NCBI RefSeq assembly: GCF_004010195.1
Contig: NC_057759.1
Coordinates: 3,188,834 to 3,233,652, forward strand
Length of the DNA: 44,819 bases
From: Chiloscyllium plagiosum
Taxonomy: Eukaryota
Reading direction: 5' to 3'
Shown: piece after piece, positions 217 through 39,699 of the stretch
Layout: each line of letters begins with the position of its first letter
Position numbering within the stretch: the stretch's first letter is position 1
The notes under the pieces: generated by a model
What the model saw: the letters and a program-made list of their open reading frames with translations, nothing else
What the model was told of the DNA's origin: nothing
Database searches by the model: none
Translations under genes and position numbers: made by a program

Positions 217-418
217 ATTACATCCATTCGTCAACGGTAATTGATTCTTTAAACTTCTCCATTTTCGTCTCCCACTCTGTTATGACAGAAAACTCTATAT
301 TCAGGAATATTGAGCTGTCAATTTTGCCTCTCATTTTGCTAGAGTTATAGCAAGCGTATAATGTAACCAAACGTCTATCAGTGTCCTTAATGAGTCTGGC
401 ATGTATACAATATTCAGT

Positions 419-577
419 TAGTAACAATAATACTGCAGATGCTAGAATTCAAAGTAGACAGGCAGAAGGACAGAATAACACAGCAAGCCAGCACCATCAG
501 GAAATGGAGAAGTCGATGTTTCTTGTGTAACAGTTCTTCAGGATTCAAGTGTTCTTCCAGCCTCCTGCCTGTCATCT
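419..577. mobile_element. Short fold-back Penelope pLTR-derived insertion (old)
   Basis: ACTGCAGATGCT terminus. Inverted arms at about 456-481 and 549-574. Decayed hammerhead on the minus strand at 511-543 (CTGAAGA...GAAACATC). Degenerate direct repeat at 402-418 and 578-594 (14/17 match). Confidence 0.65.
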
Positions 578-1186
578 TGTTTACAATAATCATTCCATTG
601 AATTATAAACCGTTCAACCATGTCAATTTCCTTTCTTGGACGCTTTCTAAACCCGTTTTGTTTGACTTTCTATATCACTGAACACATCACTATTAGGGCT
701 GGGAAGAAATGGGGAGCACAAAATTCCTGACAGCTTCTCACAGTTAATGCAGCAGAATATGATTGAAAGTGATTAGAAAGCTTGGGTAAATATTTGATTT
801 CTGCTGTCTTCACAAGTTGCAACAACAGTAGCTCTGTAGTTCCATAGTAATTGCACTGCAGCTGCAGTTATTTTTGCGTACGACATATAAAAGAACATTT
901 CATATTACTTTCAATTAGTGAATTTCTCTTGAATTATTTATTCCATCTGTTACAATACTAATATGACATGTTAGTTATGATCCTTCAAATAATCATTGAT
1001 ATAGATTGTGAAGCGATCATAGATTCACCTATGTAAAAAAAACACACTAAAAGCATTAGAGGAAATGATTCAATTAAAGTTATGAGAGTCTCAAGCTGTA
1101 AAGGCAGTCCTCATCACATTACAGGGAGAATTGGATGACAGGTACAGAAACTAGCAGATATTGGAATGTGGGTTGAATAAGCACAT

Positions 1187-1937
1187 TGTAAGACCGTAAG
1201 ACCATAGATCCATTAGACGTAGGAATAGAAATTAGATCTTTCAGCCCATCGAGTCTGCTCTGCCATTCTATTACGGCTGAAAATTTCTCAATTCTGTTCG
1301 CCTGCTTTCTCCCCAAGCCCTTGATTTCTTTGACAATCAATAACTTATCTGTTACAGTCTTGTTTATATTCCATAGATTCGTTACTCTCTGGCTGAAGAT
1401 GTTTCTCCTAAACCGTCTTCCTTTTACTCGAAGGCTGTGCCCTCGGGTCCTAGTCTTTAATATCAATGGAACTATCTTCTCAACATTCACTCTATCCAGG
1501 CCTTTCAGTATTCTGGAAGTTTCAATTGGACCACGCCTCCCACCTGAACCTTCTAAACTCCATCCAGTATTGACCCAGAGTCCTAAACTTTCTTCATATG
1601 TTCAGTTTTTCATTCTTAGGACCATCATCGTGAACTTCCTCTGAACATGCTTCAGGGCTAGGACATTCTTCCTGTTATATGGGGTACAAAACTGCACACA
1701 ATACTCCCAATGTGGTCTGACCATAGCCTTTTTGAGGCTCAAAAGTAAATCACTGCTTTTATATTTAAGTCTGTTCAAAATAAATGACGGTATTGCATTT
1801 GCCTCCCGAACTACTGACACAACTTGGAAGTTGACCTTGAGAGAATCCTACACTAGAACTCCCAAGTCTCTTTGCACTTCAGATTTCGGAATTCTCTCCT
1901 CGTTTAGAAAATAGTCAATGCATCTATTCTTCTTACA
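1187..1937 (-). mobile_element. CR1 LINE 3' fragment
   Basis: ORFs 1602..1820 (MVRPHWEYCVQFCTPY...VQRKFT) and 1119..1490 (RTRGHSLRVKGRRFRRNIFSQRVTNLWN) match CR1 ORF2 C-terminal motifs. Tandem tail GTAAGACC at about 1187-1208. Confidence 0.9.
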
Positions 1938-2179
1938 CCTAAGGATAAAGACAAACTTGTCCAATAAATGCAGTGAGAAAGAAACTGCTCTCAACTCATT
2001 AGTTGAATAATTCCAACATTACCCATTCATAACCGCATAACTTTGTTGAACTTGATGTTACAACAATTAGTACAAATCAAGATTGTTTCATATGTTTTGT
2101 ACTGGGCTCATTAAGGAATTTAAAAGATTTTTATGTGATAGGCAAGTATCCAAACAATTGACAGTTAACACTGTGCCTA

Positions 2180-4531
2180 GGAGAAATTGAGGACTGCAGA
2201 TGCTGGAGATCAGAGTCAGAAAGAGTGGTGTTGGAATAGAACAGCAGGTCAGGTAGCATCCGAGAAGCGGTAGAGTCGACATTTCGGGCATTAGGCGGGA
2301 GCGTGGTGTTGGAAAAAGCACAGCGGGTCAGGCAGCATCCGAGGAACAGGACAATCCACGTTTTAGGCATAAGAATTTATCAGGAATGACTCTTGTGGGA
2401 CTGGGAGGTGGATAAGTGATAAATGGGAGGTTGGTGGGTTTCGGGTAAAGGTAGCTGAGAATGTGATAGGTCGATGAAGGTAGGGAGAAGGTGATAGGTC
2501 AGAGAGAAGGGTGGAGTGGATGGATGGGAAGGGTGATAGACAGCTCAACAGAGTGGTGCCGAGGTAGAGGCTTGGGACTGGAATAAGGGAGGAGGAGGGG
2601 AAATGAGGAAACTGGCGAAATCCACATTAATTCCGTGTGGTTGCAGGATCCCAAGGCGGAAGATGAGACGTTCTTGCTCCAAACGTCGGGTGGTAATGAT
2701 TTGGCAATGGAGAAGGCACAAGGCCTGCATGTCCTTGGCGGAGTGGGAGTGACAGTTGAAGTGTTCAGCTGCGGAGAGGTAGGGTTGGTTGGTGAGGGTG
2801 ACCCAGAGATGATCTCTGAAATTTTGGTAAGTTGGTGTTCTGTATCCCCAATGTAAAGGGCACCACATTGGGTGCAATTCTACCTTGGAACTGGAGGGCA
2901 TCGTCGACGACGTGGGAAGGGAGACTGTGGTCTTGGAAGAAAGAGGCAATCTGGGATTTTCGAAGGTGGAATCGATTATCCTGCAAACTGATGCGGCAGA
3001 GACGGAGGGATTTTGAATCAGGGATGGCGTTTTTATAGGAGGTAGGGTGGAATGAGGTGTAGTCTAAGTAGCTAGGTCAGTCGATGGGTTTGTAGTTGAT
3101 GCCCATGTTTAGTCCGTCACCAGAGATGGAGATGGGGAGGTCCAGGAAGGTGAGGGATGTGCCTGAGATGGTCCAGGTGAATGTGACGTCGAGGTGAAAG
3201 GTGTTAGTGAAGTTCAACCTTCTCGTGGGAGCATGAGATGGCACCGATACAGTCATCGATGTAATGGAGGAGCAGATGGGGGCGTGTGTGGTGCCCATGT
3301 AACTATTGAAGATGACTGTTTCACGTTGCCGACAAAGACGAAGGCATCCTTGGACCCATGCAGGTGTCCATAGGTACCCAGTTGGTTTGGAGGAAGTGGG
3401 AGGATTGGAAGAAGAAGTTGTTAAGGGCGAAGACAGGTTCAGCCAGGCAGCTGCGGGAGTGAGTGGAAGGGTATATTTGGAATTGAGCGAGATGAACAAA
3501 CAGAAGGCTTGGAGGCCTTTGTCATGGCCGATAGTTGCCCACTAGTGAAGATGAGGCGTTGGGGTCTGAGGAAACGAAAGTCTTGGACGAACTGAAGTGT
3601 ATGAATAGTGTCCCGAGCATAGGTGGCGAGTTCCTGGACTAAGGGGGAACAGCACACGGTGACAAGATATGCAGAGAGGAGTTCAGTGGGACACAAGCTG
3701 GCTGAGACCATGGACCAAAAGGGGAAGTCAGGTTTGTGAATCTTTGGTAAGAGGTAGAATCGGCAGTGCTGTGTTCATGGACAATGAGTTTGGAGGCTAT
3801 GGATGGCAGATCGCCAGAGGAGATGAATTCGTGGATGATCTGGGAGATGATGGTTTGGTGATGGAGGGTGAGGTCATGGTCGATGGGTCAGAAGGAGGAA
3901 GTGTTTGCAAGTTGGTGCCTGGCTTCAGTGGTCAGTGCGCCAAACTACCACTGCACCACATCACCTCCCCGCCCTATTTGCAGGTTTGATGGTGAGGTTG
4001 GGTTTGGAGTGGAGAGAGTGGAGGGCTGCAAGTTGTGAGTGTGGGAGGTTAGAATGGGAGAGGGGTGTGAACAGGTTGAGGTTGCCGATGTCATGGAGCC
4101 TGTCAGAAATGAAAAGATCAAGTACATGTAATTGGGCAGTTCAGCGTGTCCAGGTGGATGGGGTGTGATGGTCGGGAGAGGCAGGTTCCTTGGTGGCTGG
4201 GCGGGATTCTTGATTGAAAAGGTGGGCCTGAAGGCAGAGGCATGGAAGTAATGTTCAAGGTCACGATGCATATCAAACTAATTAATCTGTGAGCATAGAG
4301 GTATGAAGGTGAAGCCTTTTCTGAGGACTAAACATTCATCCTCAATGAGGGGGAGGTCTGTGGGAAGAGTAAAGAAACGGCAGGACTGGGATCTAGGACC
4401 TGGGATAGGACTGGAGCTGGGTGTGGTGACGAAGATAGTCCCTTGGGTGGGCGCGATTATAGGGTCAAGAGTGACTTCCAGCACCACACCGTCGACTCTG
4501 AGCTCCAGCATCTATGGTCCTCACTTCCTCC
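2180..4531 (-). mobile_element. Penelope-like retroelement (Neptune-type), decayed, near full-length ORF
   Basis: N-terminal LVLRKGFTFIP (4278..4511), RT thumb FTWTISGTSLTFLDLPISI..YKP (3077..3499) and GIY-YIG C-terminus EHFN..HS..DM..LEQERLIFRLGILQPHGINVDF (2545..2949). Two tandem pLTR ends at 2180-2390 and an inverted pLTR terminus at 4476-4531. Confidence 0.9.
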
Positions 4532-4532
4532 C

Positions 4533-5340
4533 AGTTGATTTCAGGCATACGCCCTTCATCAGGAATGTAAGGATGGGTGGAAGGGGCTGAGTGATAAATA
4601 GGAAGGGTTGGGTCTGTGGGGTAGGTCGCTCAAAAAGTGATAGGTGAATGCAATTGGGCGGAGGAATGGTGATAGGTCAGAACGGAGGCTAGACTGGACT
4701 GTTGACAATGAAGATTGGCGGGTAGAACAATTCAAGAGGGCATGCGAAGTTGGAGCGCTGAATCTGAGATGAGGTGGCGGGATGGGAGATGAGGACATTG
4801 CTGAAATTGATGTTGATGTGGTGTGGGTCGAAATGTGGAAGAAGAGGCATTCTTCCCCCTGTCATCGGGTAGCTAGGAATTGACTGTGAGGGAGGCCCGG
4901 GGGTTGCATTGTCATTGGCAGAGTGGGAGGGGGAGTTGAAGCAGTCAGCCACAGGGCAGCGGGGTTATCTGGTTTCACAGGCATGCTGTCTGAAACAGTC
5001 CACAAGTTGACGTCCAGTCGCTCCAATGTAGAGGAGACAACATCGAGAGCAACTGATGCAACAGATGAGGTGTTCAGATATTCAGGGAAATCTCTGGTGG
5101 ATCTGAAAGGATCCTTTGGGACCTTAGATGGAGGTGAGACAGGAAGTTTGGGTAAAGGTTTTATAGGTCTTGCAGCGGCAAGAGAAGATGTCAGGAGTTG
5201 AGGGTGTGTTGGTGGGAGGGCGGGGTCCTATCACGTTAGTCGAGGAGGGAATGAACTCTGCAGAATGCTGATGGTGTAGGGAGGGAAATATATCTCATTG
5301 GTGGGATCTGACTGTAGGTGGCAAAAATATGTGCAGTTGG
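4533..5340 (-). mobile_element. Penelope-like 3' fragment (GIY-YIG region plus pLTR)
   Basis: DCFNSPSHSAND...PHHININFSN (4689..4952). The pLTR at 4533-4566 carries a hammerhead remnant (minus strand CTGATGA-A-GGGC-GTAT-GCCT-GAAA-TC). Confidence 0.8.
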
Positions 5341-5528
5341 CAAATGTTTGGGCAAGAATGTCCTTCAATAGAGTGTCCACAGTAGAAAGCCCCAAGAAGG
5401 GAGACACGGCAGTCCGTGAAACATAATTAGGCCATGGAACATCAGGGGTTGACCACAAGCCTGTCTGTGTCTAGCTTCACAGTACTATAATTAGCTTAAT
5501 TGCAAATAGAGAAATAATTGATTAATAT

Positions 5529-5823
5529 GGGTGGCACGGTGGCCCAGTGGTTAGCACTGCTGCCTCACAGCGCCAGGGACCCGGGTTCAATTCCCGCCTC
5601 AGGCGACTGACTGTGTGGAGTTTGCACGTTCTCCCCGTATCTGCGTGGGTTTCCTCCGGGTGCTCCGGTTTCCTCCCACAGTCCAAAGATGTGCAGGTCA
5701 GGTGAATTGGCCATGCTAAATTGCCCGTAGTGTTAGGTAAGGCGTAAATGTAGGGGTATGGGTGGGTTGTGCTTCGGCGGGGCGGTGTGGACTTGTTTCC
5801 ACACTGTATGTAATCTAATCTAA
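5529..5823 (+). mobile_element. HE1-type tRNA-derived V-SINE (elasmobranch)
   Basis: Pol III A box TGGCCCAGTGG (5540-5550), B box GGTTCAATTCC (5584-5594), V-domain core GTGTGGAGTTTGCACGTTCTCCCCG...CTCCGGTTTCCTCCCACAGTCCAAAGA and a (TAATC)n tail. Confidence 0.93.
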
Positions 5824-6955: not shown

Positions 6956-6959
6956 TACA

Positions 6960-7994: not shown

Positions 7995-8945
7995 GTTGCC
8001 AACATCTCCCCAGTGTGAAGTGACTGATGTAGAAATGTGGGTTGGGGGCGGGGGTTGCTCACCTGAACTCAATTCTACAGAAAGAGCATCTGAATGGACT
8101 CAGGTCTATGTAAACTTGAGGATGACATGTCAGCTCCCAAAAAGACTTGGCGAACACTTCCCACAGATTGGACATTGAAAAGTTTATCGCCAGTGTAAAT
8201 CCAAGAGTTTCTCTGTTAGCTGGATGACTGAGTGAATTATTTTCCACATTCAGCATGTAAGAAAATCCTTCCCACGATATATTCACTGGTGTTTCAGCAG
8301 GCTGGACGACCGAGTGAATATGTCTCACACTTGGCACAGGTTACCAGCCTTTCCCTAGTGTTAACTGTCCACAAATTGGTCGATTCAGTGAATCTTCGAG
8401 GAGAAAGTGAGGACTGCAGATGCTGGAGATCAGAGCCGAAAATGTGTTAAGAAGAAGGGCTCATGCCCGAAACGTCGATTCTCCTGCTCCTTGGATGCTG
8501 CCTGACCTGCTGCACTTTTCCAGCAACACATTTTCGATTCAGTGAATCCCCACACTCAGATTCTACAGTGGGTCGGGTGGTGTACAGTGAGTTCAGATAA
8601 ACGCCTGAACTCTGCCCTGCAGGGTGGACTGGTAAAAAGCCTCTCATATCTGTGAACTCACTCGTCTGTAAACAAGTGAATGAGTCAGAAAATCCCCTAT
8701 TCACACCAGGACCTAGTGAATGGCCTGTGTGAATTCATTGATTCGTCTGGAGGCTGGATGCCAAGGTGAATCTTTTCCCAAATACACAATAGATAAACGC
8801 CCTCTCCCCAGTGTGACACGCTGATGTTTTCGCAGGTTGGAGAGATTAGTAATCCCTGCCTAAATTAATCTAAATTAATCCCTTGCCACATTCAAAGTAC
8901 GAGAATGGCTTTTCCCCAGCATGAATATGCTGATGCATTTCCAGT
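7995..8945 (-). pseudogene. Decayed tandem C2H2 zinc-finger gene
   Basis: The minus strand reads LEMHQHIHAGEKPFSYFECGKG, then LSNLRKHQR/HTGERAFIYCVFGKRFTLASSLQTNQ*IHT, ...PFRCSFCRIEF and HQSLHTGE. These are repeated HTGEKPF-type linkers with lost Cys residues, stops, frameshifts and a TE insertion at 8395-8533. Confidence 0.85.
8395..8533. mobile_element. Short fold-back Penelope pLTR-derived insertion
   Basis: Minus-oriented pLTR terminus (GAGAAAGTGAGGACTGCAGATGCTGG) joined to a plus-oriented arm beginning GAAGAAGGGCTCATGCCCGAAACGTC. Exact 15-bp direct repeat TCGATTCAGTGAATC at 8380-8394 and 8534-8548. Confidence 0.88.
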
Positions 8946-8989: not shown

Positions 8990-10780
8990 TTTGAACCTTC
9001 TCAAAAGCCATTTGAAAGTCCAAAAACACAACATCTATCGATTCACGCTTGAGCTGAAAAATGTATTGCTGGAAAAGCGCAACAGGTCAGGCAGCATCCA
9101 AGGAGCAAGAGAATCGACTTCTTCATGGCTTGTCGACTCTAGTGGTCACATCTTCAAAACATTCCAGAGGATTTGTCAAGCTTGATTTATATTGAGTGTA
9201 GTCATGCTTACTTGGACTGATGCTGTCAATGCTTTTCAAATCCTCAATTATGACTTTCTTAATAATTGAGTAACATTTTCACCACCACCGATGTCAGCTC
9301 CCCGTATTCTCTTCAAAAAATTGGATTATATTATCTACCCTCCTGTCCATTGAAACTCTTCCAGACTTTTAAAACAATGAAAAATTATCAATAATGTATC
9401 TGCTTTTTCTAGAACCATTTCGTTAAGTACTCTGAGATGCAAAGCATCGGGCCCCGGGATGTTGTCAGATTTTAATCCCATCAATTTCCCCAAACCACTT
9501 CCTGAATAATAAGGATTTCCTCAGATTCCTCCATTCTTGACCCTCTGTCCTCGAACATGGATGGAAGGTTTTTTTTTTATTTTGTTCCAAGTGAAGTCAG
9601 ATTCAAACAATTTGTTTAACTGGTTCTGCCATCTTTCTGTTGTCCATTAAGAATTCACCTGATTCAAACTATCAGGGAGAAACATTTGTCAGCGGCAGTC
9701 CTTTAATCTTAACATAACCATAGAACCTTTTGCAGTCAGGTTTTTTATGTTTTCTAGAAGCTAACTTGCACACTCTGTTTCTCTTTCCAAATTAATCACT
9801 ACGTCCTCCTCTGCTGAATTTTAAATTCCTCCCAGTCCTCAGGTTTGCTGTTTTCTCTGGACAATTTAAATATGTCCTCTTTGGATTTAACACCCTCCCT
9901 GATTTCTTCTGCTAAGCATCGTTGGGGCACCATGATTTAAACTGAGCCAGACAGAAATGTGCAATTGTTAAAGTTCATCCATGCATTCTTTAAGTATCTG
10001 CTATTGCTTATCCAACACCAATCCCTTGGCCAGTTTATCCCAGCCACCATACCATCAAAGTTAGCTTTATGTTCAGGACGCTAGTTTCAGATTTAAGTGT
10101 GTCATTGTCCATATTAGTGAAGAATTCTACCATTTTGAGGTCACTCTTCCCCGAAGCATCTTGCACTAAAATGTTGCCAATTAATCCTCTTTCACTTCAC
10201 ATAGCCAGTCTGGGATGGCTTAGTCGCAGTCGGTTCCTTGACATATTGATTGAGGAAATCATATTTCATACAGTCCAAAAAATCCTCCTCCATCGCATTG
10301 GTACGAGTTTGCTTCGTCCAATTAATACGTAGATGGAGGTCATCTAAAATAACTGCTGTACATTTACTGCGTGCAATTCTAATTTCCTGTTCGAAACAAT
10401 CCTCAAAATGACAACTACTCTTTGGTGGTCTGTATACAACTCCCACTAATGTATTTTTCCTTTAAGCATTCCACTGCTCCATCCAAACAGATTGCACATC
10501 ATCCAGGCTGATGTCTTCCCTTACTGTTGTAATATCCTCCATAACTAGCAACGCTACCCCAACTACCTTTCCGTTATGTCTATCTTTACAGAAAATTGAA
10601 CAACTGCGAAAGTTGAGTTCCCACCCTTGGTCATCCTGGAGCCAGGTCTCTGTGATCTCAATTACAACATATCCATTAATAACTGTTTGCGTAGTTACTT
10701 CATCCAATTTATTACAAATGTTCCTCGCATTGAGACCCAGAACCTTGAAGTTCATTTTTTTAATGGCATTTGTTGCCCTC
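8990..10780 (-). mobile_element. CR1 LINE ORF2 fragment (APE endonuclease to start of RT)
   Basis: LNARNICNKLDE..ITETWLQDDQGWELN..GVALLV (10462..10755), GVVYRPPKS..FLNQYVKEPT (10192..10446) and a DVVFLDFQMAFEKV-like RT motif near 8995-9040. Confidence 0.88.
9051..9125 (-). mobile_element. Penelope pLTR fragment inserted in CR1
   Basis: GCTGGAAAAGCGCAACAGGTCAGGCAGCATCCAAGGAGCAAGAGAATCGAC matches the pLTR family at 8451-8533. Hammerhead stem II and GAAAC are deleted (TGAAGAA joined to GTCGATT). Confidence 0.75.
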
Positions 10781-15030: not shown

Positions 15031-15055
15031 AATACAGTGGAGCAGATTTGAGTCT

Positions 15056-15183
15056 AGATTAGATTAGATTACATTACAGTGTGGAAACAGGCCCTTTGGC
15101 CTAACAAGTCCACACCGACCTGCCGAAGCGCAACCCACCCATACCCCTACATTTACCCCTTACCTAACACTACCGGCAATTTA
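15056..15183 (-). mobile_element. HE1-type SINE 3' fragment
   Basis: (GATTA)n tail plus CAGTGTGGAAACAGGCCCTTTGGCC..CCCATACCCCTACATTTACCCC, near-identical to 22646-22775. Confidence 0.9.
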
Positions 15184-15184
15184 T

Positions 15185-23250: not shown

Positions 23251-23349
23251 TAGAAATATTGTTTGTTGACAGTATGAATTCTTCTGAGAATGTAATACAT
23301 TAGTGATACTTTGCAGTTCTGAGACAGTGTGGCCCTCAGTTGAGGTATT

Positions 23350-24230: not shown

Positions 24231-25540
24231 ACAAGAACAAAGAACAAAGAGAATGACAGCACAGGAACAATCCTTTTGGCCCTCCAAGCCTTCTCTGATC
24301 GAAGTCTTCTCTCTAAACCTGTCACATATTTTCTCAGGGTCTGTACCCACTTCCTCCCTGACCATTCATGTATTTGTTTAGATACATCCTAAATGATGTT
24401 ATAGTGCCCGACCCCACCACCCTCTGCGTAAAGAACTTTCCACCCATATCTCCTCCAAACATTTCCCCTCTCACTTTGAACTCATGACCCCTAATAATTG
24501 AATTCCCTCACTCTGGGAAAACCTCTTGCTATCTACCCTATCTATAACTTTTAGTAAGGCGTTTGATAAGTTTCCCCTTGGTACCCTCATGGAGAATGTG
24601 CATTTGCATGGGGCACAGGGTGCACTCACTTAACGGATAAAGAACTGGAGGGGCAATAGGAGATTTTGTAGGTCTTAATTCGGGTCCTCCCTCAATCTCC
24701 ATCTCTCCAATGAAAATAATCCTAATCGATTTAACCTCTCCTCATAGCTAGCACGCTCCATACGAAGCAAACTCCTGGTGAACCTTCTCTGCACGCTTTC
24801 CAAAGCATCCGTATCCTTTTGGGTAATGTGTCGACCAGAACTGTACAGTATTCCAAATATGCCAAAACCAAAGTGTGATACAACTGTAACATAACCTGCC
24901 AACCCTTGTACTCAATACCCTGCCCAATGAAGGAATGCATGCCATATGTCTTCTTAACCACTCTATTGACCTGCGTGGCCATCTTCTGGGAACAATGGAC
25001 CGGAACATCCAGATCTCTCTGTACATCAATCTTCTCCAAGACTTTTCCATTTACTGTATAGTTCGCTCTTGAATTGGATCTTCCGAAGTGCATCACCTCG
25101 CATTTGCCTGAATTGAACTCCATCTGCCATTTCTCCACTTAACTCTCGAATCTGTCTTTATTCGTCACTATCTGCGATACAACCAAACAGTGTTATCTGC
25201 AAACTTGCTAATCAGGCCACCTATACCTTTCTCCATGTCATTTATGTATATCACAAACAATAGTGGCTCTAATACGGATCCCTGTGGAACGCCAATGGTC
25301 ACTGGTCTCCATTTCGAGAAAATCATTCCCACTACTACTCTCTCTCTCCAGTTCATAATCCGTTGAGTGAGTGCACCCTGTGCCCCATGAAAATTCACAT
25401 TCTCCATGAGGGTACCAAGGGGAAACTTATCAAACGCCTTACTGAAGTCCACGTTTATGACATCTAGATCTCTTTCCTTATCAATTAACTTTGCCACTTC
25501 CTCAAATAATTCTATTAAGTTGGGAAGACATGACCTTCTC
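24231..25540 (-). mobile_element. CR1 LINE 3' 1.3 kb (RT to tail)
   Basis: VDFSKAFDK..GVPQGSVLEPLLFVIYINDM..ISKFADN (25168..25554), KWQMEFNSGKCEVMHFG (24731..25138) and an (ACAAAGA)n tail at 24231-24250. Confidence 0.95.
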
Positions 25541-26306: not shown

Positions 26307-26310
<4 letters not shown>

Positions 26311-28891: not shown

Positions 28892-29602
28892 TGTTATAAA
28901 GATGTGGGTATGCTTTAAGAGAGTTAAAAGCAGTAGAATTATCAGACAGAGCAACCAAATATTCTCAATGAAGTAACAATGTAATACTTCATCGAACAAC
29001 TCGATTAGCTGATTGCCTGGAAATGAAAAGAAACAGATTTGAAGTAGGCCAATCTGTTTAAAGCATTCCATGAAGAAAAATTCCAATCAAGTTTGAATTA
29101 AATATATTGACAATCTTAAAAACCAATGACACAATCCAATGCTCTGGTGTATAGGACCGGGGAAGATGGAACTGTTAGGAGGAGAACTGCCAAACCCCAG
29201 CAGGTAAAAAACTGCCTGAACAATAGCTCTCGTAAAAATACCATTTTGATCAGTAACCTGTGAAGCAGAATTCCTAAGAAGAACAAAAGAAGACACAGGA
29301 AGATCCAAATAGAAGAATCAATAGCTACCTGTTTTTGAAATAAGAAGTGTTGCTTCGTAAATCTTAATTGGGAATTTTATCAACTAGTATTGTTGAAGTG
29401 AAGGTAAAAGATAGGCTAGCATAAGGACTTGTACATAGTCGTTAGATAATTATTCTCTGTTATACTTTCAGAAATAAAGTAGTTAACTTTGACTTTAAAA
29501 CGCTGTTGGCCAATCGAATTTTTACAGATTACTGCATGGAATGAACCTTTTTGGAGTTGTTGCTTTTAAATTAAGCAGGAGGGTTTACCCCGTGTCGTAA
29601 CA
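28892..29602 (+). mobile_element. Solo LTR (711 bp) inserted in CR1
   Basis: Starts TGTTATAA and ends TCGTAACA (TG..CA with short inverted termini). 4-bp TSD GAAG at 28888-28891 and 29603-29606. AATAAA at 29473-29478. The CR1 sequence is contiguous when the LTR is removed. Confidence 0.88.
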
Positions 29603-30112
29603 GAAGCATATGATGTGTTAGCTTTTATTCGTATAAGGACTGAGTTTCTGAGCCATGAGATCATGTCGCAGCTGTACAAAATTCTGGTGCAGCCACATTT
29701 GGAATGTTGCATACATTTCTGGTAACCACGTTATAGGAAGGATGTGGAAGTTTTGTAAAGTGTTCAGATGAGATTTATTGGGTTGTTGCCTGGTATGGAA
29801 GGCAGGTCTTACGAGGAAAGGCTGAGGGACTTGAGGCTGTTTTCTCTCGAGAGAAGAAGATTGCAATGTGACTTAATTGAGTCATATAAGATAATCAGAG
29901 GATTAGACAGGTTGGACATTGAGAGTCTTTTTTTCAGATGGCAATAGCTAGCACAAGGGGACATAGCTTTAAATTGAGGTGTGATAGCTATAGGAGGTAG
30001 TTTCTTTACTCAGAAAGTAGTAGGGGTTTGGAATGCACTGCCTGCAAGAGTAGTAAACTCGCCATCTTTAAGGACATTGCAATTGTCATTGGATAGGCAT
30101 ATGAACGAGAAT

Positions 30113-30325
30113 CTGGATCAGTGGTGCTGGAAGAGCACAGCAATTCAGGCAGCATCTGACGAGCAGCAAAATCGACGTTTCGGGCAAAAACCCTTCCTGA
30201 ATTGCTGTGCTCATCGGATGCTGGCTGAATTGCTGTGCTCGTCGGATGCTGCCTGAATTGCTGTGCTCTTCCAGCACCACTGATCCAGAATCTGGTTTCC
30301 AGCATCTGAAGTCATTGTTTTACCT
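30113..30325. mobile_element. Short fold-back Penelope pLTR-derived insertion with internal 28-bp tandem repeats
   Basis: Inverted arms at about 30112-30165 and 30236-30289. Partial hammerhead on the minus strand (GAAGGGTTTTTGCCCGAAACGTCGATT). Repeats start at 30197, 30225 and 30253. Exact 14-bp TSD ATATGAACGAGAAT at 30099-30112 and 30326-30339. Confidence 0.9.
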
Positions 30326-30500
30326 ATATGAACGAGAATGCAATAGTATAGTTGAGATGGGCTTCAGATTGGTTCCACAAGTCGGTGTATCATGGAGGGC
30401 TGAAGGGCCTGTACTGCACAGTAATGTTCTATGTTCTTATAGAGAGAGGGTTGGAGCATCTGAAGATGGTTTCGGAGACTGGGAGATTTATGGGTGTTAA

Positions 30501-30764
30501 TGAACAGCATAGATACGGGGAGGGTTTTTTTAGTGATTGGAACGAGGTCAGTCAAGTAAACCTCATTAATATGTGTTCCCTGATTGGGACTGTTAACCTG
30601 GTTAAATCATGGACTCCTGGCTGACAGAAATGGACAGGACCATCATGAGTTCTGTTCACTATAGGGCTGGCACTGATCGAGCTTGTGGCAGTGTCATGTG
30701 CCATTCATGTATAAATAAAAGGTGATTTGGTGACAGGATACCTGCCTTTGTAGGGTTAATTTAA
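30501..30764 (+). mobile_element. Possible short solo LTR (Gypsy-type), old
   Basis: TGAA...TTAA ends flanked by a TGTTAA direct repeat (30495-30500 and 30765-30770). AATAAA at about 30714, followed by GGTGATTTGGTGACAGGATACC, which I recall from shark Gypsy LTR 3' ends. Confidence 0.5.
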
Positions 30765-31255
30765 TGTTAACATCTGGTAGAGGTTTTAGAGATCAGGAGG
30801 GCTGGAGGTGTCTTCACAGATCTGGATGGATATGTAATATGCAGTATTCAGAGAAAGTGCGCAGAATGTGCGGAATTGGGAATGCTGGAGAGACGAGAGG
30901 ATGTTACAGAGCTGGTTAGGCACTGGAGCAAAGAAAAGTGATGGGCAGCGTTGTAGGTGTTTGAACAAGTTGTAGATATGTTGAACACTGTAGTGGCTGG
31001 AGAAGGTTATGTACATAATGAGGTTTGACGGGACAGGAGAGAAATCATGACATTGGTGGTGATGTGAATTGGTGAAGATTGCAAAGGGTGTGAGATTTCT
31101 ATTAATCGAGCAATAAGACAGAAAGGAAAAGCTGTAAGGACTTGAGAAATACGTTCTACAGAGGGGGGAATGGAGGGCTGGAGGACATTTCAAAGAAAGA
31201 AATTTTATATCGCCTGCAAGAGTTACAGAGAGATGGAGGGCAGGAAGAAACTATT

Positions 31256-32591
31256 GTCTCATTCGATGTAACGGCACTGTTCACCTCTATCGATTAAATC
31301 CTAGCCAGAGAAACAATAGCCAACCTGCTGGACATACAGAACAGACAACAAGACGGGGAACCTATCAACAAAGACTGCATACTCAAACTACTGGACCTGT
31401 GCCACACAACACACTTCACATTCAACAATCAAATATATGAACGAATCAACGGCACACCCATGGGCTCACCCATCTCTGGACTCATAGCAGAAGCGGTAAT
31501 GCAAAGATTAGAACAAACAGTCTTACCACAAATGCAACCCAAACTCTGGGTCAGATATGTAGCTGACACCTTTGTAATCATTAAAAACACAGAAATAGAA
31601 AACACACACCGGATCATCAAAGCCACACTCACAGGAAGCAGATTCACAAGAGAGGAAGAAAAGGAAAACCAACTCCCATTCCTTGAGGTGATGGTACAGA
31701 GAAAACCGAACGGAGAATTCATCACAAAGGTATACAGGAAAACCACACACACAGACCCAAGTCCTGAACTACGAAAGCAACCACTCCAACACACTCAAAA
31801 GAAGTTGCATCAAGACACTGTTCAAAAGAGCCACAACACACTGCAGCACACCAGCACTGCAAAAACAGGAAGAAGAACACCTCTACAATGTATTCACCAA
31901 AAACGGATACCCCCGCAATTTCATCAACAGATGCCTAAGGGAAAGACAACAGAATGAGGACATGCCACAACCCAAAGGATGAGCCACCTTACCATACATC
32001 AAGAACATTTCTGAACTGACAGCCAGACTACTACGACTACTCATAACAGCACACAAACCAACAGCCACTCTCAGACAACAACTCACCAGGACAAAGGACC
32101 CGATACCCAGCATGAGCAAAACCAACGAGGTGTACAAAATCCCATGCAAGGACTGGAACAAAACACTACATAGGACAAACAGGAAGACAGCTAACGATCA
32201 GCTTCCATGAACACCAACTAGCCACGAAACGACACGACCAGCTATCCTTAGTAGCCACACACACAGATGATAAGTAACATGAGTTTCACTGGGACAACAC
32301 TATTATTATAGGACAAGCCAAACAGAGAAGAGCCAGGGAATTCCTCGAGGCATGGCACTCATCCACAGATTATATCAACAAACACATCAACCTGGACCCA
32401 ATATACCGGCCACTACAGCGGACAGCTGGAACTGACAACGGAAGCGACACAGACAAACCACTATCAATGCCGGAGGAAACATCACAGAAGCGCTTCACAG
32501 GAGGCTCCCTAGCACTGAGGATGTCACCTAGACAGGGGACGAAACGTCTGCAACACAACTTCCCAGCTCGGCGAACAGAACCACAACAACA
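31256..32591 (+). mobile_element. Penelope-like element (Poseidon-type), 5'-truncated, RT + GIY-YIG + pLTR
   Basis: VSFDVTALFTSID, GTPMGSPISGLIAEAVMQRLE, WVRYVADTF (YVDD mutated), ENQLPFLEV, VYRKTTHTD, VYKIPCKD..HYIGQTGR and AREFLEAWHS..INKHINLDPIY. Frameshifted. Confidence 0.95.
32512..32551 (+). ncRNA. Minimal type I hammerhead ribozyme motif (PLE pLTR)
   Basis: GCA-CUGAGGA-U-GUC-A-CCU-AGAC-AGG-G-GAC-GAAA-C-GUC-UGC. It has an intact CUGANGA/GAAA/GUC core, stem I GCA:UGC, stem II and a palindromic ACGU in place of stem III. Predicted cut after C32548. Confidence 0.8.
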
Positions 32592-32614
32592 GGGCAGCAT
32601 TGGCTCATGGAGGT

Positions 32615-32945
32615 TACAGAGAATCATAGAAAGCCGATAGTGTGTAAACAGGCCACTTGGCTCCAATTCCACACCTACCCTGCGAAGAGTAACCCACCCA
32701 GACACATCCATCTACCCTATATTTTCTCCTGACTAATGCACCTAACCCACCCATTCCTGAACATTATGGGTAATTTAGCTCAGCTAATTCACCTGGATTG
32801 TGGGAGGACACCGAAGCACCCGAAGGAAATCCACGCAGACACAGGGAGAATGTGCAAACTGTTTGCAGTCGCTCACAGCTGGTTTTCAACATGGTTTCCT
32901 GGCGATGTGAGGCAGCAGATCTAACCACTGGGCAACCATGCTGCC
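32615..32945 (-). mobile_element. Older HE1-related V-SINE
   Basis: GGATTGTGGGAGGACACCGAAGCACCCGAAGGAAATCCACGCAGACACAGGGAGAATGTGCAAACT..CTAACCACTGGGCAACCATGCTGCC is a diverged match to 22800-22960. Confidence 0.88.
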
Positions 32946-33149
32946 GTGCAGCGCTCGGAATCTATCGCATGGGATTGATGATGTTACAGAGACAGGATGT
33001 TATTGGATTTGGAGGACTTTCAAGTATCACACTGAACGACACAGACATCTTTTGGCACAGAAGGATGTCATGTGACCGATTATAGTTACACCAGCTCGTC
33101 AACTGGACTCTATCCTGTGTGTAATGTTCTCCTCCTTCTTCCATATCCT

Positions 33150-35170
33150 TACACATTATTTTCGTGTCAATAATCATTCATTCGCCTCTTGAATATTTCC
33201 ATCATACATGTATCTATAAAACATCCAAGCAAATGCTAACTACTCGCAGAGAATTGTTTTCCAGATATGAATCCTCCTTCTCATTCCAAACCTGCTTTAC
33301 TCCATCTTTTAATCCGCTCAGCCTGAGGTGTCCACAGAAGATTCTGGGACAGTTCTCTATTGGCTCTCAGGGTTTTCATAACTCCCTTCGTCCCACCCCG
33401 CTGTCACCATCTTCCCTCTGAATCTTCTGCATTCCTCCTGGTTCACAATTTGATTCTCTACCTGACATCGATTCGATTTTCTTCTCCATCATCGGGGGAC
33501 AGTTGGGTTTGTTTATCCAGCCCTTCCTACTTGAGAGACCATTCCTCGGCTGTACCTAAACCATCTCCTCATTGTTCAATTTTTCTTTTTCTGATAAACT
33601 TGGTGTTCCAGTCAAAACTTCCTGGCTTCATTCTTGCCCCATTGAAGGCTGCTCTCAGTCAACTAATTTTTCTCATTCTCAATTATTGCAAACCATTCTC
33701 TATCATCGTCATGAACTTCCCAATAAAATTATCACTGTGTCCCAAAACGTTCCTCTACTGACATTAGATCCACTTGCCCCACCTCTACTCCAAGGGCCAG
33801 GTCCAACAGGATATGCTATCCCGGGCTGGACACGTTATTCTGCAGTAAGATCTGTTCCCTGCTATCCAGGAACATTCGCCCCTCATGACCCCGCACGACT
33901 AGTATCACAGTCTATATCTGAATAATTTAATTTCTCAATATAACTACTCTGTAGTACTGTCATCGCTCTCTAATATCCCTGTATAGTTACTCTCTTCATC
34001 CTGGCCAACTGGTTGTTGGCCTCCAGATGGTACCTCACAATGTAATTGTATACTTTTGTTCTGTAGCTCCAATTAAATTCATTCTATCATTGGACTCCTT
34101 CAATAACACTAATCTTGACCAATTCTTCTATCCTTCATCCTTTCCCTACCCTTTTATCGTTTCTGAATACTTTATACCCAGCAATATTTAAAACCCTGTC
34201 CTGCCGTTCCTTAAGCCAGCTCTCAGTTATCAGTACATTAGATTTCCACACAGAAAACTGCATCTGTAACTCCCCAGGCTCCAAGTACTCACGTCCATAC
34301 AGAGTATTAAAGATTTAGAATTTCTTTCTTAATCTAACTTCCACAGTTAAACTTGTTTTTGAAAATTAGTACCAGCTGCACCTCCAAGTATTTTGTGAAT
34401 CCTGGTAGTCTCCTCCACTATTCCTTCCTGGATCCAACACACACGCTAAGTTATTTTCAATCCCTCCCAAATTTCCGACAAGGAAATCAATCCTAGCTCT
34501 GTCACATGTTCTCTGACCTGTCTTATACAGTTGCTGCCTTCTCCAGAACCAGTCTCAATGTCTCGGGAACTTGAAGCCCTTCCTGATGCATTATCGTTCC
34601 AATCACAGTCTCATCAACCTAAAACTTCGAGTTTTGTTCTCACTTGTACATGGCACTGGAGGGATTCCAGGGATTGAGATCCTGCTGTTAACCATCCACC
34701 TAGCTCCTTAAGTTCTGATTACCAGAACAATTCACCTTTCCTATCCATCTCATTTCTACCAACATGGACATCACCTTTGAATGCTCACTGTCCCCCAAGC
34801 GAATGTCTTGCAGACACAATGACATCCTTGACCTCACAATCCGGGAATTAATTTCACAGAAACGCTTACATCTTCTTCAATTTACTGAATTCCCTGTGAC
34901 TATTGCTCCTCCTTCCATCTCCTTCCCCTCCTGTACAGTCAGGCCGCTTGTTGTGACACAAACATGGCTCTGACTGCACTCTCCTGAGCATCTAGCCCCT
35001 TCATCAGCTTCTAAACTAGAAACCGAATTGTGAGTCAGACATTAGGCTATTCCTATATTCCCTGGCTGTGTCTCTTCGATTGACTGGGCGCCCATTCCCT
35101 TCCTTCTTCCAGGCTGTCATGTCTGCAGGGTGATTTTCTCACTTTATGTGCTATCCACATAACTCTCACT
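33150..35170 (-). mobile_element. Old CR1 5' portion (ORF1 and endonuclease), heavily decayed
   Basis: Reverse-strand ITESWLKERQDRVLNIAGYKVFRNDKRVGKG near 34140-34230, and ORF1-like sequence near 34450-34900 similar to 6100-6550. Confidence 0.65.
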
Positions 35171-35519
35171 GCTTGCAGACCAACAGCATTTTAGGTTATT
35201 ATGGGGTTAATTTTCCTTGAGGCATCAAACACTGAAATCTTTTAAAAGTTTGATGGATTTTCTTAAAAATATTACAAACCCAATCCTCCTCTTTTTTTCT
35301 CTCTCTGAGAAACAATCAGTTTGGTTTGGTTGGTATCCGTACCGGGATTTGTGACCAGGTTAAGATAACAGGGAGAGGCATGTGATTTTGGGTTAATCTT
35401 GAATGAAATGCTGAAAGATCGTTTGGTGTGTGGGATTAATGATTTAACCATGTAAGAATGCGGGTCATCTTAATCCCGAGAAGACTTCAAACAGGCAATA
35501 CAACTGACGTTGACATTAG

Positions 35520-38335
35520 AAAATGTTGATATCACTTTCCGTGTGATCAGGACGTAAATCTGCAATTTTGCAAGTCCTGACCAGTACCATCTGCCTTACA
35601 GGCAAGAGTAGAGGCGCCGCTCTGGAGGCTCGAAAATTAAGGAATCATCAAACCAGTGCAATGTGTGGAATGGGCAGCACCAGGTGTAAAGGTTGTGAAA
35701 CCTGCCCGCGTTTCTGGAGATTATAAGTAAGTGCAGCATGGGAGCAGCAGGGCATCCCAACGTAGTTCATCTCTCCGACTGAGCTTTGCTGACACCATTT
35801 GAGAGTCGACAGTCGCAGAGCGTCATGCAGGACATATCCTGAATAGAGTGACATTAGTTCAGAGCTCAGGTAAACCCCACAACAAAGCTAATTGTCGGTT
35901 GAGGGGTAAAAATGTCTTCGGAATCTCGGCTGTCAAGCCATCTTTGGACTCCAGACAACAAAGGAGTCCTGCAAGGCCTGACTTGATTGCGAGAACCCAT
36001 ACAAGATTAGCCAGGAGAGTGCACAGCCTAGAAATGCACCTACATGTGTGGCAGAACAGGTAAATTGCGTAGCAACATTCAAGTCAGATTCAATTAAAAT
36101 AAATGGCAGGTTAAATGTCACCCAGTTCTCACAGATGTCAATATAGCGGCAATTGTGTCAATGGCTAAGAGTGAGAGCGTACATGAAGTAGCCATTGCAA
36201 CTTAATGGTATGATTTCTGTTCCAGTCTCCTTCGAGAAGCAGTTGCTGCAGTTCCCACTTGCTGTTGCAAAAGCCTCGCCCCCAAGCCCATTGGGAACGA
36301 ATTGGTTGAGGAAGATTCATCGTGACTGACCCAACATTTTTGGAACAGAAAATCGTTGCCAATTTGAAGTCCAAATTAAATACCTAGAAATGTTTCTGGA
36401 GGGGCTAGGGAACTATCAAACGCGTTGATATCACTTTACATGTGACCAGGGCGCAAGTCTGCAAATTTGCAAGGCCTGACCAGTACCATCTGCCTTACAG
36501 CAAGAGTAGAGGTGTAGCTCAGGAGGGTTGAAAGCAAAGTAATAATCAAACCAGTGCAATTTGTGGAATGGGCAACACCAGGTGTAAAGCTTGTGAAACC
36601 TGTCCACCTTTCTGGGGGTTATAAGCAAATTATAAACAACTTCTCGCAGGTGAAAGCATGCTCAATTCTTCGCATCGAGGACTCGAAAGATAAACTGGTG
36701 AGGTGGGGTGGAGAGATGTTGACGGGCGTGGGTGAATGCTTCCATCATGAAGCTGGACGTAAGTCAAGCCAACCTGCAATTTTGAGTAGATGTGGAGTCC
36801 TAGAAATATGCTACAATTAATGCATGTAATGGGTCACACCAATAGGTACGACTGCCATTTTGGGGTACAATCAACCTGCAGCCTTTTCCAGCAGAAAATG
36901 GAGAACATTTGACATGGGCTACCTCGGGTTGGCATTTATCTGAATGACGTGTCACTAACAGGGAAGACCAGCAAAATCTCTTGGAGACCGTGGCCATAGT
37001 GCTTGAACATTTCTTCAGGGCTGGTGCTCGCCTTTGAAGGGAAGGACGAGTGAATCCGGCGCCCTAAGTAGCCTACAGGAGCCAGAGAGTCGACAAAGCC
37101 GGGATAAACCAGTTGGTGATCAAAGATGTCCTGGCTCACATGTCTGTGCCGGAGCTTATGTTTTCTTTGAATTGGTGAATTATTACAGGACATTCATAAG
37201 TAATCTGGCCCACACCTTTGAGCTCTTGCATCTGCTATTGTAAGGGTTCAGTCTTGGAAGTGGTCATATTGCCAGGAAGTAGCCTATAGAGAAGTGGGGA
37301 AGAAAAACAGCTATTGTCATCTACCGTGTTGACTCACTATGATCCCAAGTGAGGGGTGGTGCTGACATGCAATACCTCCTTATATGGATATCGGACTCGT
37401 GTTGGTTCATTGGTGTCCCAATGGAGAGGAACGTCCAACAGTGTATGCTACCTGGGCTTTGGCTGATGCTAAATGCAAATGCCGAGATACAGCAGGTTTG
37501 GCTGTCATCTTTGGTGTAATTAATTTCCAACAATATCTTTACGGACTAAACTTGGCACAGCAACGGTAAGGAGGATAAGGAGGGTGTGCTAGGTAAGGAA
37601 GGCCATAGCTTCTGGTCGAATTCAGCTGTGAATCTGTATTCTCAGTGCCTTGAATAACAAGTTGCAAAACCCTCCAGGAGGCCAAGTGGCTGCTGCAGAA
37701 GCCTTGAGCTGCCTCACACTGTCACATACTGCAATAGTGCCAGTTCCCCGGAAGAGGCCATTCCATTTTTAAACTTTCGGTCCATCCGTCCACTCACCAT
37801 TGACAATATCCAACTGTGCATACACACAAATAAATCGTCCTGCCAAAATTAAAACAGCTGAAGTTAATGGGAGAAACAATCAGGCCATCACAACTAGAAC
37901 TGAAACCTTCCTGGACCCAGTGATATCACATAAGCCTGCAGGACCGCATATTATTATGGGGAGCAAGAGTTATTCTCCTGAGAAAACATCCTCGGCAGAT
38001 ACTGGCTGAACTCCAGCAGCATCATCCAGGGCTTTCCAAGGTGAAGTTGTTGGCAAGACGTTCCGTCTGGTGGTCAGTATTAGATATCGACATTGCTGGA
38101 TTGATGGATCAGTGACCACAGAGAAAACAAAGATAAAACTTACCGCCAGCAGTACCTCCATCACCGTGGGAGTGGCCAAGAAAACCCTTGGACTCGCCTA
38201 CACATCAAATATGCCAGCATTTTTAGAAATGAATTTTCCTGGTTGCTGTGGATGCCCTTTCAGAATAGTTGGACATGAATAGCGTTTGTCCGGCAAATGT
38301 ACGGATATCGATTGAAAAACTGCGAGCATCGATTT
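35520..38335 (+). mobile_element. Ty3/Gypsy LTR-retrotransposon internal remnant (protease, RT, RNase H, integrase)
   Basis: RT N-terminus PVPSALQ.RVE..IIKPVQFVEWATP. RNase H LTHYDPK..VLTCNTS..GLVLVHWCPNGEERPTVYAT..GLAVIFGV..FQQYLYG. Integrase zinc-binding region QHHPGLSKVKLLARRSVWW..PSPWEWPRKP. Many frameshifts. Confidence 0.85.
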
Positions 38336-38399
38336 TAATGGGGGGTGAGAACAATGAACTTTGCACTGAACTGTTTCGTCCTCCAGCCCGTTAACCCTG

Positions 38400-39110
38400 C
38401 CTATCTCTGTTATGAAAATCATCTGGGAGAATGCTACCGCTCTCTGTAACATGTGCTGCAGGGTTTAAAATTCTGCCGATCTTCGTGTGCTCCTCCAGTA
38501 CCTACAACTGCTCCTGTCTCTGCAACCTCGTCCCACACACTGAAACCTCTTCCGACACGACATTCCCTGCCTCAGTTACATTTTGTGGCTTCTACGAACC
38601 ATCCTGTCTGTGGTATCCTCTTTACTTCATCAGCCCTCGCTATCTCTGCAACTTCCACCAGCCTCCATAATCATCTTTACCTTTATAAACTACTCCAATC
38701 CCTCCAGTACCCTTTCTCTATACACCCCTCCAATCCCTATGTCGCTCCCCAACTATTGAGCGTGTTTCAATTCCGACAAACTGTGCCAGTCTGCAGCTCT
38801 ATGACCCACTCCCGCCCCAGATCATACACGTCTCCCTATCATATACTAATGTGCGAACCTCTCCAGCAACTACAACATTGCATTTCTCAGTTTACTCCTC
38901 TACTCCCGACAGCCATCCCATTCTTTGTAAACGTGCACCTCAAACCCTTTCCCTTTGTGTAATTTACTCCTTCCCTTTTTAAACTGCCCCAAACCTTCCA
39001 AACTACTCCATCTCTATACACTACTGCAGCTCCTACAGTCCCAAACTACCCTTAAACTGCAGAGAACCTATCAACCTTCCTAACTGTGTAATCACTTTAG
39101 GCCCCTGCAA
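38400..39110 (+). repeat. Degenerate C/T-rich tandem repeat (CTATCTCTGYAACCTCCTCCAG-like units), possibly L2-derived
   Basis: Recurring variants such as CCTATCTCTG, CTGTCTCTGCAACCTCG, CTATCTCTGCAACTTCCACCAG and CCTCTCCAGCAACTACAAC at roughly 35-bp spacing. Confidence 0.55.
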
Positions 39111-39197
39111 CATTCTCGATCTTCAATGTTTGTGAGAAGATTTGTAGCTCGGTTGCTCGTTGTTGTGGTTCTGTTCGCCGAGCTGGGAATTTGTGTT

Positions 39198-39237
39198 GCA
39201 GACGTTTCGTCCCCTGTCTAGGTGACATCCTCAGTGC
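39198..39237 (-). ncRNA. Minimal type I hammerhead ribozyme motif
   Basis: The reverse complement is identical to 32512-32551. Predicted cleavage C is at 39201. Confidence 0.8.
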
Positions 39238-39592
39238 TTGGGAACCTTCTGTGAAGCGCTTCTGTGATGTTTCGTCCGGCATTTATAGTGGTTTGAAACT
39301 GCCGCTTCCGGTTGTCAGTTCCAGCTGTCTGCTGCAGTGGCCGATATATTGGGTCCAGGTCGATGTGTTTGTTGATATAATCTGTGGATGAGTGCCGTGC
39401 CTCAGAGAACAGCCAGGGAATTCCTCGAGGCATGGCACTCATCCACAGATTATATCAACAAACACATCGACCTGGACCCAATATACCGGTCACTACAGCG
39501 GGCAGCTGGAATTGACAACCGGAAGCGGCAGTTTCAAACCGCTATAAATGTCGGAGGAAACATCACAGAAGCGCTTAACAGGAGGCTCCCAA

Positions 39593-39632
39593 GCACTGAG
39601 GATGTCACCTAGACAGGGGACGAAACGTCTGC
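39593..39632 (+). ncRNA. Minimal type I hammerhead ribozyme motif
   Basis: Identical to 32512-32551. Predicted cut after C39629. Confidence 0.8.
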
Positions 39633-39699
39633 AACACAAATTCCCAGCTCGGCGAACAGAACCACAACATTCTCGATCTGTGGAACGTTTTACAATATC

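Follow-up and report, generated by a model that had tools for sequence, protein, structure and literature searches.

Results

The sequence studied here is a 44,819-nt stretch of the Chiloscyllium plagiosum genome (NC_057759.1, 3,188,834–3,233,652), in the following called the window; all coordinates below are window positions. It holds five short insertions, E1 (419–577), E2 (8395–8533), E3 (30113–30325), E4 (39123–39669) and E5 (23129–23710), which are almost certainly extremely 5′-truncated copies of Penelope-like elements (PLEs). Our alignments agree with an initial annotation that had described E1 to E4 as pairs of oppositely oriented arms, both derived from the pseudo-long terminal repeat (pLTR) of a PLE, and within each of these four insertions the arms come from the same subfamily. 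E5 is an additional, fifth case. The outer ends of the insertions are the two recurrent 3′ ends of the element, which lie 34–45 nt apart, so that one arm carries a terminal tail and the other does not. In all five cases, one target site duplication (TSD) encloses both arms and no second TSD is found inside.

E1 lies between a left TSD at 402–416 (up to 418 on a 17-nt reading) and a right TSD at 578–592, located by a boundary-anchored search; TSDs are given on the plus strand throughout. Its tail arm, a pLTR labelled Neptune-type (419–545, minus strand), extends from the tail end to about 3–8 nt upstream of a degenerate hammerhead core (509–541), and the tail-less arm occupies 548–577 on the plus strand. 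E2 is framed by duplications at 8380–8394 and 8534–8548. Here, the tail arm (8395–8448, minus strand) comprises the tail and only 12 nt past the tail-less end, and the tail-less arm (8451–8536, plus strand) begins 2 nt inside the hammerhead core, its final 3 nt being at the same time the first 3 nt of the TSD. In E3, located between 30099–30112 and 30326–30339, the tail-less arm (30113–30196, minus strand) ends inside the hammerhead core, and the inner end of the tail arm (30197–30325, plus strand) is repeated, with 2.6 copies of a 28-nt unit at 30196–30268.

E4, labelled Poseidon-type, is flanked by duplications at 39108–39122 and 39665–39679. The tail arm (39123–39403, minus strand) has its tail end at +106 from the ATG and contains a whole hammerhead (39201–39234) as well as the end of the endonuclease region. 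The tail-less arm (39403–39669, plus strand) is 23 nt longer at its inner end, forming a loop (39404–39426); it carries a second whole hammerhead (39596–39629), has its outer end at +68, and shares its last 5 nt with the beginning of the TSD. E5 is bordered by 23115–23128 and 23711–23724. Its tail-less arm (23129–23248, minus strand) consists of approximately 25–30 nt of pLTR end and then jumps to reverse transcriptase (RT)-coding sequence (23153–23248 matches 3309–3399), and its tail arm (23362–23710, plus strand) of about 350 nt contains a hammerhead core at 23586 in which GAAA is mutated. The inverted sequence common to both arms measures 25 nt in E1, 12 nt in E2, roughly 60–68 nt in E3, 243 nt in E4 and 23 nt in E5. 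With an inverted part of only 12 nt, E2 is therefore hardly a hairpin.

TSDs were searched at the element boundaries for ten boundary pairs, and 400 random boundary pairs provided the chance level. E2 (15/15), E3 (14/14) and E4 (15/15) have exact duplications and E5 matches at 13/14 positions, and none of the random pairs was as good as any of these four. The E1 duplication is degenerate (13/15, 1/400 random pairs as good; 14/17 by eye if 17 nt are read). Hence, the 15, 14 and 15 bp of the initial annotation stand for E2 to E4. Its 17 bp for E1, and with it the upper limit of its 14–17-bp range, applies only under the looser reading; TSDs in the five two-armed copies span 14–15 nt. At 31244–32590, a 7-nt flanking repeat is borderline (13/400 random pairs as good), and no TSD above chance was found for the boundary pairs 43543–43997 and 9053–9127 or for two readings of 2179–5290. 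The two-armed, TSD-framed layout is thus common in this window and not universal. The insertion targets are mildly AT-rich, with 57–80% compared with 56% for the window.

Reads and contigs were compared in 4 of 24 runs (including X8, X12, X15 and X19) over 29400–40000, a stretch that contains E3 and E4, with E1, E2 and E5 lying outside it; the tables gave 15 of 1,545 joints, 24 of 14,068 loose ends and 24 of 306,951 pieces. A contig of another organism (X8 record 18) joins 39107 directly to 39665 (record positions 562 to 563) with no letters between, i.e., E4 and one TSD length are absent. The E4 flank (38617–39107, 39665–40000) has diverged look-alikes even in the window's own species (X15 record 14) and is therefore a low-copy repeat or duplication. 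E3 lies in the 3′ end of a remnant of a long interspersed nuclear element (LINE), of which a second copy of the same end is found at 44160–44440. This paralogue aligns best with one copy of the E3 TSD (score 274, compared with 246.5 for none and 264 for two), and a joint 30112–30355 that skips E3 is present in three of the four runs. Together, duplications and empty sites indirectly show that the TSDs arose by genuine duplication at a staggered cut of approximately 14–15 nt. The check for empty sites proposed in the initial annotation returned a single TSD copy at candidate empty sites of both E4 and E3, for E3 in LINE paralogues. Around E2 (8100–8900, minus strand) the sequence presumably consists of decayed C2H2 zinc-finger-like repeats, with HTGE..C..C remnants; a reading-frame test of this repeat was uninformative, given its decay and a TSD length divisible by 3.

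The outer ends recur at fixed positions. Counted from the hammerhead core, tail ends lie at +123 to +127 in all four reliably aligned Neptune-type tail arms (E1, E2, E3 and the copy at 2179), and the reference E5 arm runs to about +125; tail-less ends fall within about 13 alignment columns in 6/6 Neptune-type arms. For the Poseidon-type copies, the tail-less end is found at +68 in E4 and +70 in the copy at 31244, and the tail end at +106 in E4. The length restricted to the tail arm, including TSD overlap, amounts to 34, 45, 37 and 43 nt in E1 to E4 and approximately 33–36 nt in E5. The non-inverted copy at 31244 likewise terminates at the tail-less end, and the second tandem copy begins with it at about 2297. 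What had been taken for a truncated arm thus has an outer end that is a fixed element end and not a break. Among the 24 loose ends listed, those at 30321 show reads that run on past the tail end. As the element continues there, both ends must be internal positions of the RNA.

At the tail-less end, arm and TSD overlap by 5 nt in E4 and 3 nt in E2, in line with the few nt that the initial annotation had given for truncated arms where they can be read; in E3 the exact overlap is only 1 nt, and likewise 1 nt in E1. Compared over the first nine bases of the TSD, the element continuation matches at six positions in E2, seven in E3, five in E4 and one in E1. For these four insertions together, 19 of 36 positions match where 9 are expected (binomial p 3e-4 to 1.5e-3; E5 is outside this count).

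The inner ends are less uniform. Relative to the first base of the hammerhead core, the longer arm stops at about −7 in E1, +3 in E2 and about +6 in E3 (by eye, as the alignment overran), and the stub at 2179 stops at +10. These Neptune-type stops do not coincide with the hammerhead cleavage site. Inner ends of E5 and E4 are off this pattern, approximately 225 and 170–190 nt upstream. Among the loose ends listed, those at 30196 agree over their first nine letters and then lose agreement in X12. A fair guess is that at stops near the core the enzyme ran off the 5′ end of the RNA or met a structural block. In E2, E3 and E4, it is the tail-less arm that covers more upstream sequence, and only the tail arm carries the tail. 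The private parts of these arms score only 5–7 against the other arm, which equals background. For the E4 loop, alignment to the sense strand of the 31244 copy gives a score of 20, and this loop is plain sense element sequence. Each arm of E2, E3 and E4 hence contains sequence missing from the other and the E5 tail-less arm jumps to RT sequence; therefore, in four of the five cases neither arm is a fold-back copy. E1 shows the opposite geometry, with a longer tail arm and a second arm wholly within it. Inner junctions show 0–2 nt of homology or filler, and the five insertions have five different centres. At 39401, in the E4 centre, 41 X19 reads as well as contigs from each of the three organisms lack two letters; this may be a recurrent junction or hotspot beside 8-nt palindromes or an alignment-edge artefact. 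For 29400–40000, the four runs listed no pile-up of molecule ends.

E1 to E5 themselves hold at most the last 40 codons of coding sequence, and longer copies in the window had to be consulted for their identity. Nine frames from these copies were scanned against Pfam. One of the nine (31298–31954, within the 31244 copy) matched RVT_1 with E 6.4e-6 and 26.5 bits, below the cut-off of 29.6, and none matched GIY-YIG. By eye, GIY-YIG motifs are seen as VYKIPC..-HYIGQTG across a frameshift and as CxxC-LYIG in 4780–5290. The minimal hammerhead motif (CUGANGA, stem II and GAAAC-GUC, a definition checked against PMC4209133) is present as two whole cores in E4, one per arm, and also whole in the 31244 copy. 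The E1 and E5 cores are degenerate, and E2 and E3 have stem II and GAAAC-GUC only, lacking CUGANGA. The whole or partial hammerhead announced for each of E1 to E4 is found to this extent by motif, and an Rfam search gave no hammerhead at E<=1, with three chance-level matches only. The ensemble of RT and GIY-YIG in longer copies, a pLTR with a minimal hammerhead motif, a one-sided tail and a TSD with a single copy at the empty site is that of PLEs. We propose that the hammerhead is a passenger of the pLTR and not a function of the insert.

The Neptune clade is distinguished by a zinc-finger-like linker separating RT from endonuclease, which is absent in the Poseidon clade, and by RT phylogeny. 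In E4 and the copies at 31244 and 43550, no Cys-rich linker is seen by eye before the endonuclease, a layout like that of the Anolis carolinensis Poseidon protein PAc. A Poseidon-type label would fit their linker region and pLTR layout. A Neptune-type label would likewise fit E1, E2, E3, E5 and the copies at 2179 and 4549, for E1 to E3 by pLTR likeness only; just before the endonuclease, 4780–5290 shows a degenerate Cys-rich stretch by eye. As the initial annotation had it, one layout occurs in both putative types, in the arms of E1 to E3 and of E4. A 25-nt pLTR pattern had 0 matches in viral contigs and 0 in metagenome contigs, and an RT query against metagenome contigs gave 199 pattern matches and no confirmed relative.

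Several other copies served for comparison. The E4-family copy at 31244–32590 (plus strand, 1.35 kb, with RT, GIY-YIG region and hammerhead) ends at the tail-less end and has no inverted arm. In an older insertion labelled Poseidon-type (43550–43997), an inverted left arm (about 43550–43712, minus strand) and a forward right arm (43715–43997, plus strand) are contiguous and non-overlapping in element coordinates. In the long Neptune-type copy (2179–4475, minus strand), a tail-end pLTR stub (2179–2296) stops in hammerhead stem II and is followed by a direct tandem 2.2-kb copy that starts from the tail-less end (about 2297–2300). This arrangement suggests that tandem and inverted forms share one second start site.

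Next to it, a sense pLTR arm (4476–4549) exceeds the usual tail end by about 10 nt. It borders directly on a Neptune-type copy in antisense orientation (4549–5290), whose start is only a few bases away from the hammerhead cleavage site; nested insertion or priming at a ribozyme-cut end may be the cause, and no TSD was found. A lone tail-less arm at 9053–9127 is 93% like E2 over 61 nt; its hammerhead stem II has seemingly been lost by a short deletion, and its 5-nt flanking repeat is not above chance. A very decayed stretch (15184–16500) has frames resembling a minus-strand Neptune-type ORF, without an in-window tblastn match and with no pLTR seen. Further repeats include RT-coding sequence of an antisense LINE remnant that recurs in inverted orientation over 101 nt (24550–24650 and 25346–25446, 94%); this inversion is of LINE type and has no connection with the PLE insertions. 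A SINE-like (short interspersed nuclear element-like) repeat of about 300 nt occurs four times, with copies up to 96% alike (5528–5823, 15051–15183, 22648–22961, 32639–32945), and a 31-nt minisatellite (44434–44819; 12.5 copies, 99%) runs off the window end.

Discussion

Our analyses indicate that the two-armed insertions were probably built by twin target-primed reverse transcription. Each would have formed at the moment of integration from an autonomous, endonuclease-bearing PLE. The GIY-YIG endonuclease would nick both target strands about 14–15 nt apart and thus generate two 3′ overhangs, although for the second nick the part of the enzyme is inferred. Each overhang might then prime reverse transcription on element RNA, one at a distal site, giving the tail end, and the other at a proximal site 34–45 nt upstream, where 3–9 nt of primer–RNA pairing, visible in the sequence, could aid the start. 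Both cDNAs would stop early, which in Neptune-type mini-insertions means mostly close to the upstream border of the hammerhead core. Joining of their 3′ ends would involve homology or filler of 0–2 nt and be preceded in some cases by slippage, as in E3, or by a template jump, as in E5; fill-in by repair would then fix the TSD. Because the arms overlap by as much as 243 nt, the process would require either strand displacement or a second RNA copy. TSDs, end positions, non-derivable arms and complementarity are seen directly; from them we infer the order of events and the number of RNAs. The process would resemble L1 twin priming, reportedly described by Ostertag and Kazazian in 2001, with a fixed second start site and a larger overlap.

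For twin priming, the inverted segment should not be derivable from the first cDNA. This is found in E2 to E5 and in the 43550 copy, complementarity is present in three of five insertions, and E1 is ambiguous. The contiguous, non-overlapping inverted arms at 43550–43997 are explained only by two primings. From the mechanism offered in the initial annotation, the staggered cut of about 14–15 nt and the short complementarity at the tail-less end are thus retained, and fold-back synthesis is not, as the arms of E2 to E4 cannot be derived from each other.

Several observations weigh against two primings. The sample consists of five two-armed insertions from one window, four of them chosen by eye for their shape, and a 14–15-nt TSD was found for only five of the ten boundary pairs tested. 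E1 fits a simple fold-back equally well, and primer complementarity at the tail-less end is lacking in E1 (1 nt) and E5 (none, by eye). In E4, both arms stop at most 24 nt apart beside two 8-nt palindromes, which a hairpin intermediate explains more easily. The E4 arms differ at 13 of 243 positions, of which the tail-less arm shares seven and the tail arm six with the 31244 copy; this is no two-template pattern. Some local end alignments ran into flanks or were spurious and had to be excluded (E1 tail-less arm, 4476 arm). The X8 contig with the empty E4 site is 8–11% diverged and may be a paralogue, because X15 record 14, from the window's own species, differs as much. Finally, the PAc study stresses non-homologous starts without homology between start site and target (PMC11167929).

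The closest published alternative is a self-primed hairpin (Arkhipova et al. 2013), in which an antisense strand started at the tail folds at a palindrome and copies out to the tail end, after which the endonuclease removes the tail from the older strand and attaches the hairpin at a staggered cut in the target. Self-priming was proposed in PMC3846280 and the tail ascribed to endonuclease resolution in PMC8557442. The model predicts a tail-less arm that reaches further upstream, as in E2, E3 and E4, and it would account for the E4 turn beside its palindromes. E1 has the opposite geometry, however, the inversion at 43550–43997 leaves no overlap to fold back on, and the RT sequence in the E5 tail-less arm is missing from its tail arm. 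Moreover, junction homology reaches only 0–2 nt, and according to in vitro work the tail is defined by two RT start sites, not by a cut (PMC11167929). We hence regard this route as unlikely. A single target-primed cDNA, begun at the tail end, that forms a fold-back, is copied on itself up to the tail-less site and is then linked to the other target end by microhomology would fit E1 fully and predicts the overlap of arm and TSD seen in E2 to E4. As a general route it is refuted by the second arms of E2, E3, E4 and E5, which contain sequence missing from the first, and it gives no account of why the second arm ends where the tandem copy (about 2297) and the non-inverted 31244 copy end. It may apply to E1-type insertions, and overall we think it has little chance of being correct.

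The insertions might alternatively represent a family in which a palindromic mini-element arose on one occasion and subsequently multiplied as a unit, like miniature inverted-repeat transposable elements (MITEs) or retrozymes. Non-autonomous PLE derivatives do exist, as noted in the literature, pLTR ends are very abundant (X19 read depth: E3 bin about 14,000, E4 2,600–4,000, flanks below 2), and the two-letter gap at 39401 could be a recurring junction near the E4 centre. Depth falls to 370 at 39401, however, against thousands in the arms, the five centres differ, and no E3 or E4 centre is reproduced among the 15 of 1,545 joints listed. The arms are not equal terminal inverted repeats, and E2 and E3 have no working ribozyme core. 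MITEs have terminal inverted repeats at either end, a fixed short TSD determined by their transposase and numerous near-identical unit copies, and retrozymes are tandem hammerhead-bearing monomers that yield circular RNA. As MITEs the insertions were rejected on account of termini offset by the tail, 14–15-nt TSDs of varied sequence and five different centres, and as retrozymes because the units are inverted instead of tandem and the core is missing in E2 and E3. We consider unit amplification very improbable, and the description of the insertions as MITE-like ribozyme-bearing hairpins is not upheld. The reading as two independent insertions into one site, or as flanking repeats that match by chance, has some background in that PLEs can target their own pLTR (PMC11167929) and that the 2179–5290 cluster looks nested. 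With one TSD around both arms in five cases, only 0–1 of 400 random pairs as good, no inner TSD and arms of the same subfamily in E1 to E4, this explanation can hardly be maintained.

Extending twin priming, we suggest as a more tentative reading that double priming is programmed into PLE integration. In this view, a dimeric RT–GIY-YIG complex might nick both target strands a fixed 14–15 nt apart and start cDNA from both tail ends, with a pairing-aided start at the tail-less one; priming of this same start by the 3′ end of the first cDNA would yield a tandem pLTR, as at 2179–2300. If true, one rule would cover tail, inverted pLTR, tandem pLTR and TSD in the Neptune and Poseidon clades. How tandem and inverted pLTRs and the one-sided tail form has been called undefined (PMC8557442), and the only in vitro study of PLEs does not extend to second-strand events (PMC11167929). 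A large natural read-out is offered by genomes that harbour tens of thousands of stump-sized copies, as counts of arm geometry, of TSD length and of complementarity at the ends can discriminate between twin priming and the hairpin. For annotation, such copies should not be filed as MITEs or as a new ribozyme element.

Under the name "typical Penelope structure", Arkhipova et al. (2013) described direct pLTRs with an inverted pLTR next to them, where one pLTR bears a 31-bp tail and the TSD measures 9 bp; they also reported 8- and 10-bp TSDs as well as an empty allele with a single copy (PMC3846280). The same layout, with a 30–40-bp tail at one end, is drawn by Craig et al. (2021; PMC8557442, Fig. 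2), whose preprint calls PLE TSDs variable, and is repeated in a curation guide (PMC8969392). Hence, the architecture of our insertions is already known, and not an under-described system as initially suggested; these families are further members. Complex insertions of endonuclease-positive PLEs such as Pen2a_Av (PMC3846280, PMC8557442) share head-to-head inverted truncated copies, a one-sided tail, one TSD per unit, a single TSD at the empty site and short captured or jumped segments. In contrast to the 8–10-bp TSDs of the Adineta PLEs (PMC3846280), 14–15 nt are found here in all five two-armed copies and in two putative clades. E1 to E5 represent the smallest form (139–580 nt), and their geometry favours two primings where PMC3846280 and PMC8557442 favour self-priming or endonuclease resolution. 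Our literature search found no twin-priming proposal for PLEs and no 14–15-nt PLE TSD peak; PLE reviews of 2005/2006 and Repbase reports, which were outside this search, may hold TSD figures.

In vitro, PAc nicks and extends both strands, two adjacent internal start sites delimit the tail, and the protein is predicted to be dimeric (Frangieh et al. 2024; PMC11167929). Its element resembles E4 in that the ATG lies where hammerhead stem II begins, a distance of about 36–40 nt separates two AC-rich ends that delimit the tail, and both strands are used; template letters in Fig. S1 show AC-rich ends resembling the two ends of E4. The distal PAc site lies at +111–118, compared with E4 ends at +68 and +106. 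That study did not tie the two starts to inverted insertions or measure the stagger, whereas in our set pairing is seen at three of five tail-less ends. Hammerheads in PLE pLTRs are likewise known, and PLE pLTRs and animal retrozymes (PMC4209133) have in common with our insertions a type-I minimal hammerhead in the pLTR and thousands of dispersed short copies; unlike retrozymes, our units are inverted and not tandem, and two of five lack the core. For L1 twin priming, overlapping cDNAs (median 12 nt) and a median TSD of 13 nt were reported (PMC12016303). On the twin-priming reading, shared features are two opposite cDNAs primed from both target ends, a TSD of about 13–15 nt, and small central overlaps, gaps and filler. 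By the definition in PMC12016303, 43550–43997 has the classic L1 twin-priming form. PLE insertions differ from L1 in the absence of poly(A), in a GIY-YIG instead of an APE endonuclease, in a fixed second start and in an overlap of up to 243 nt.

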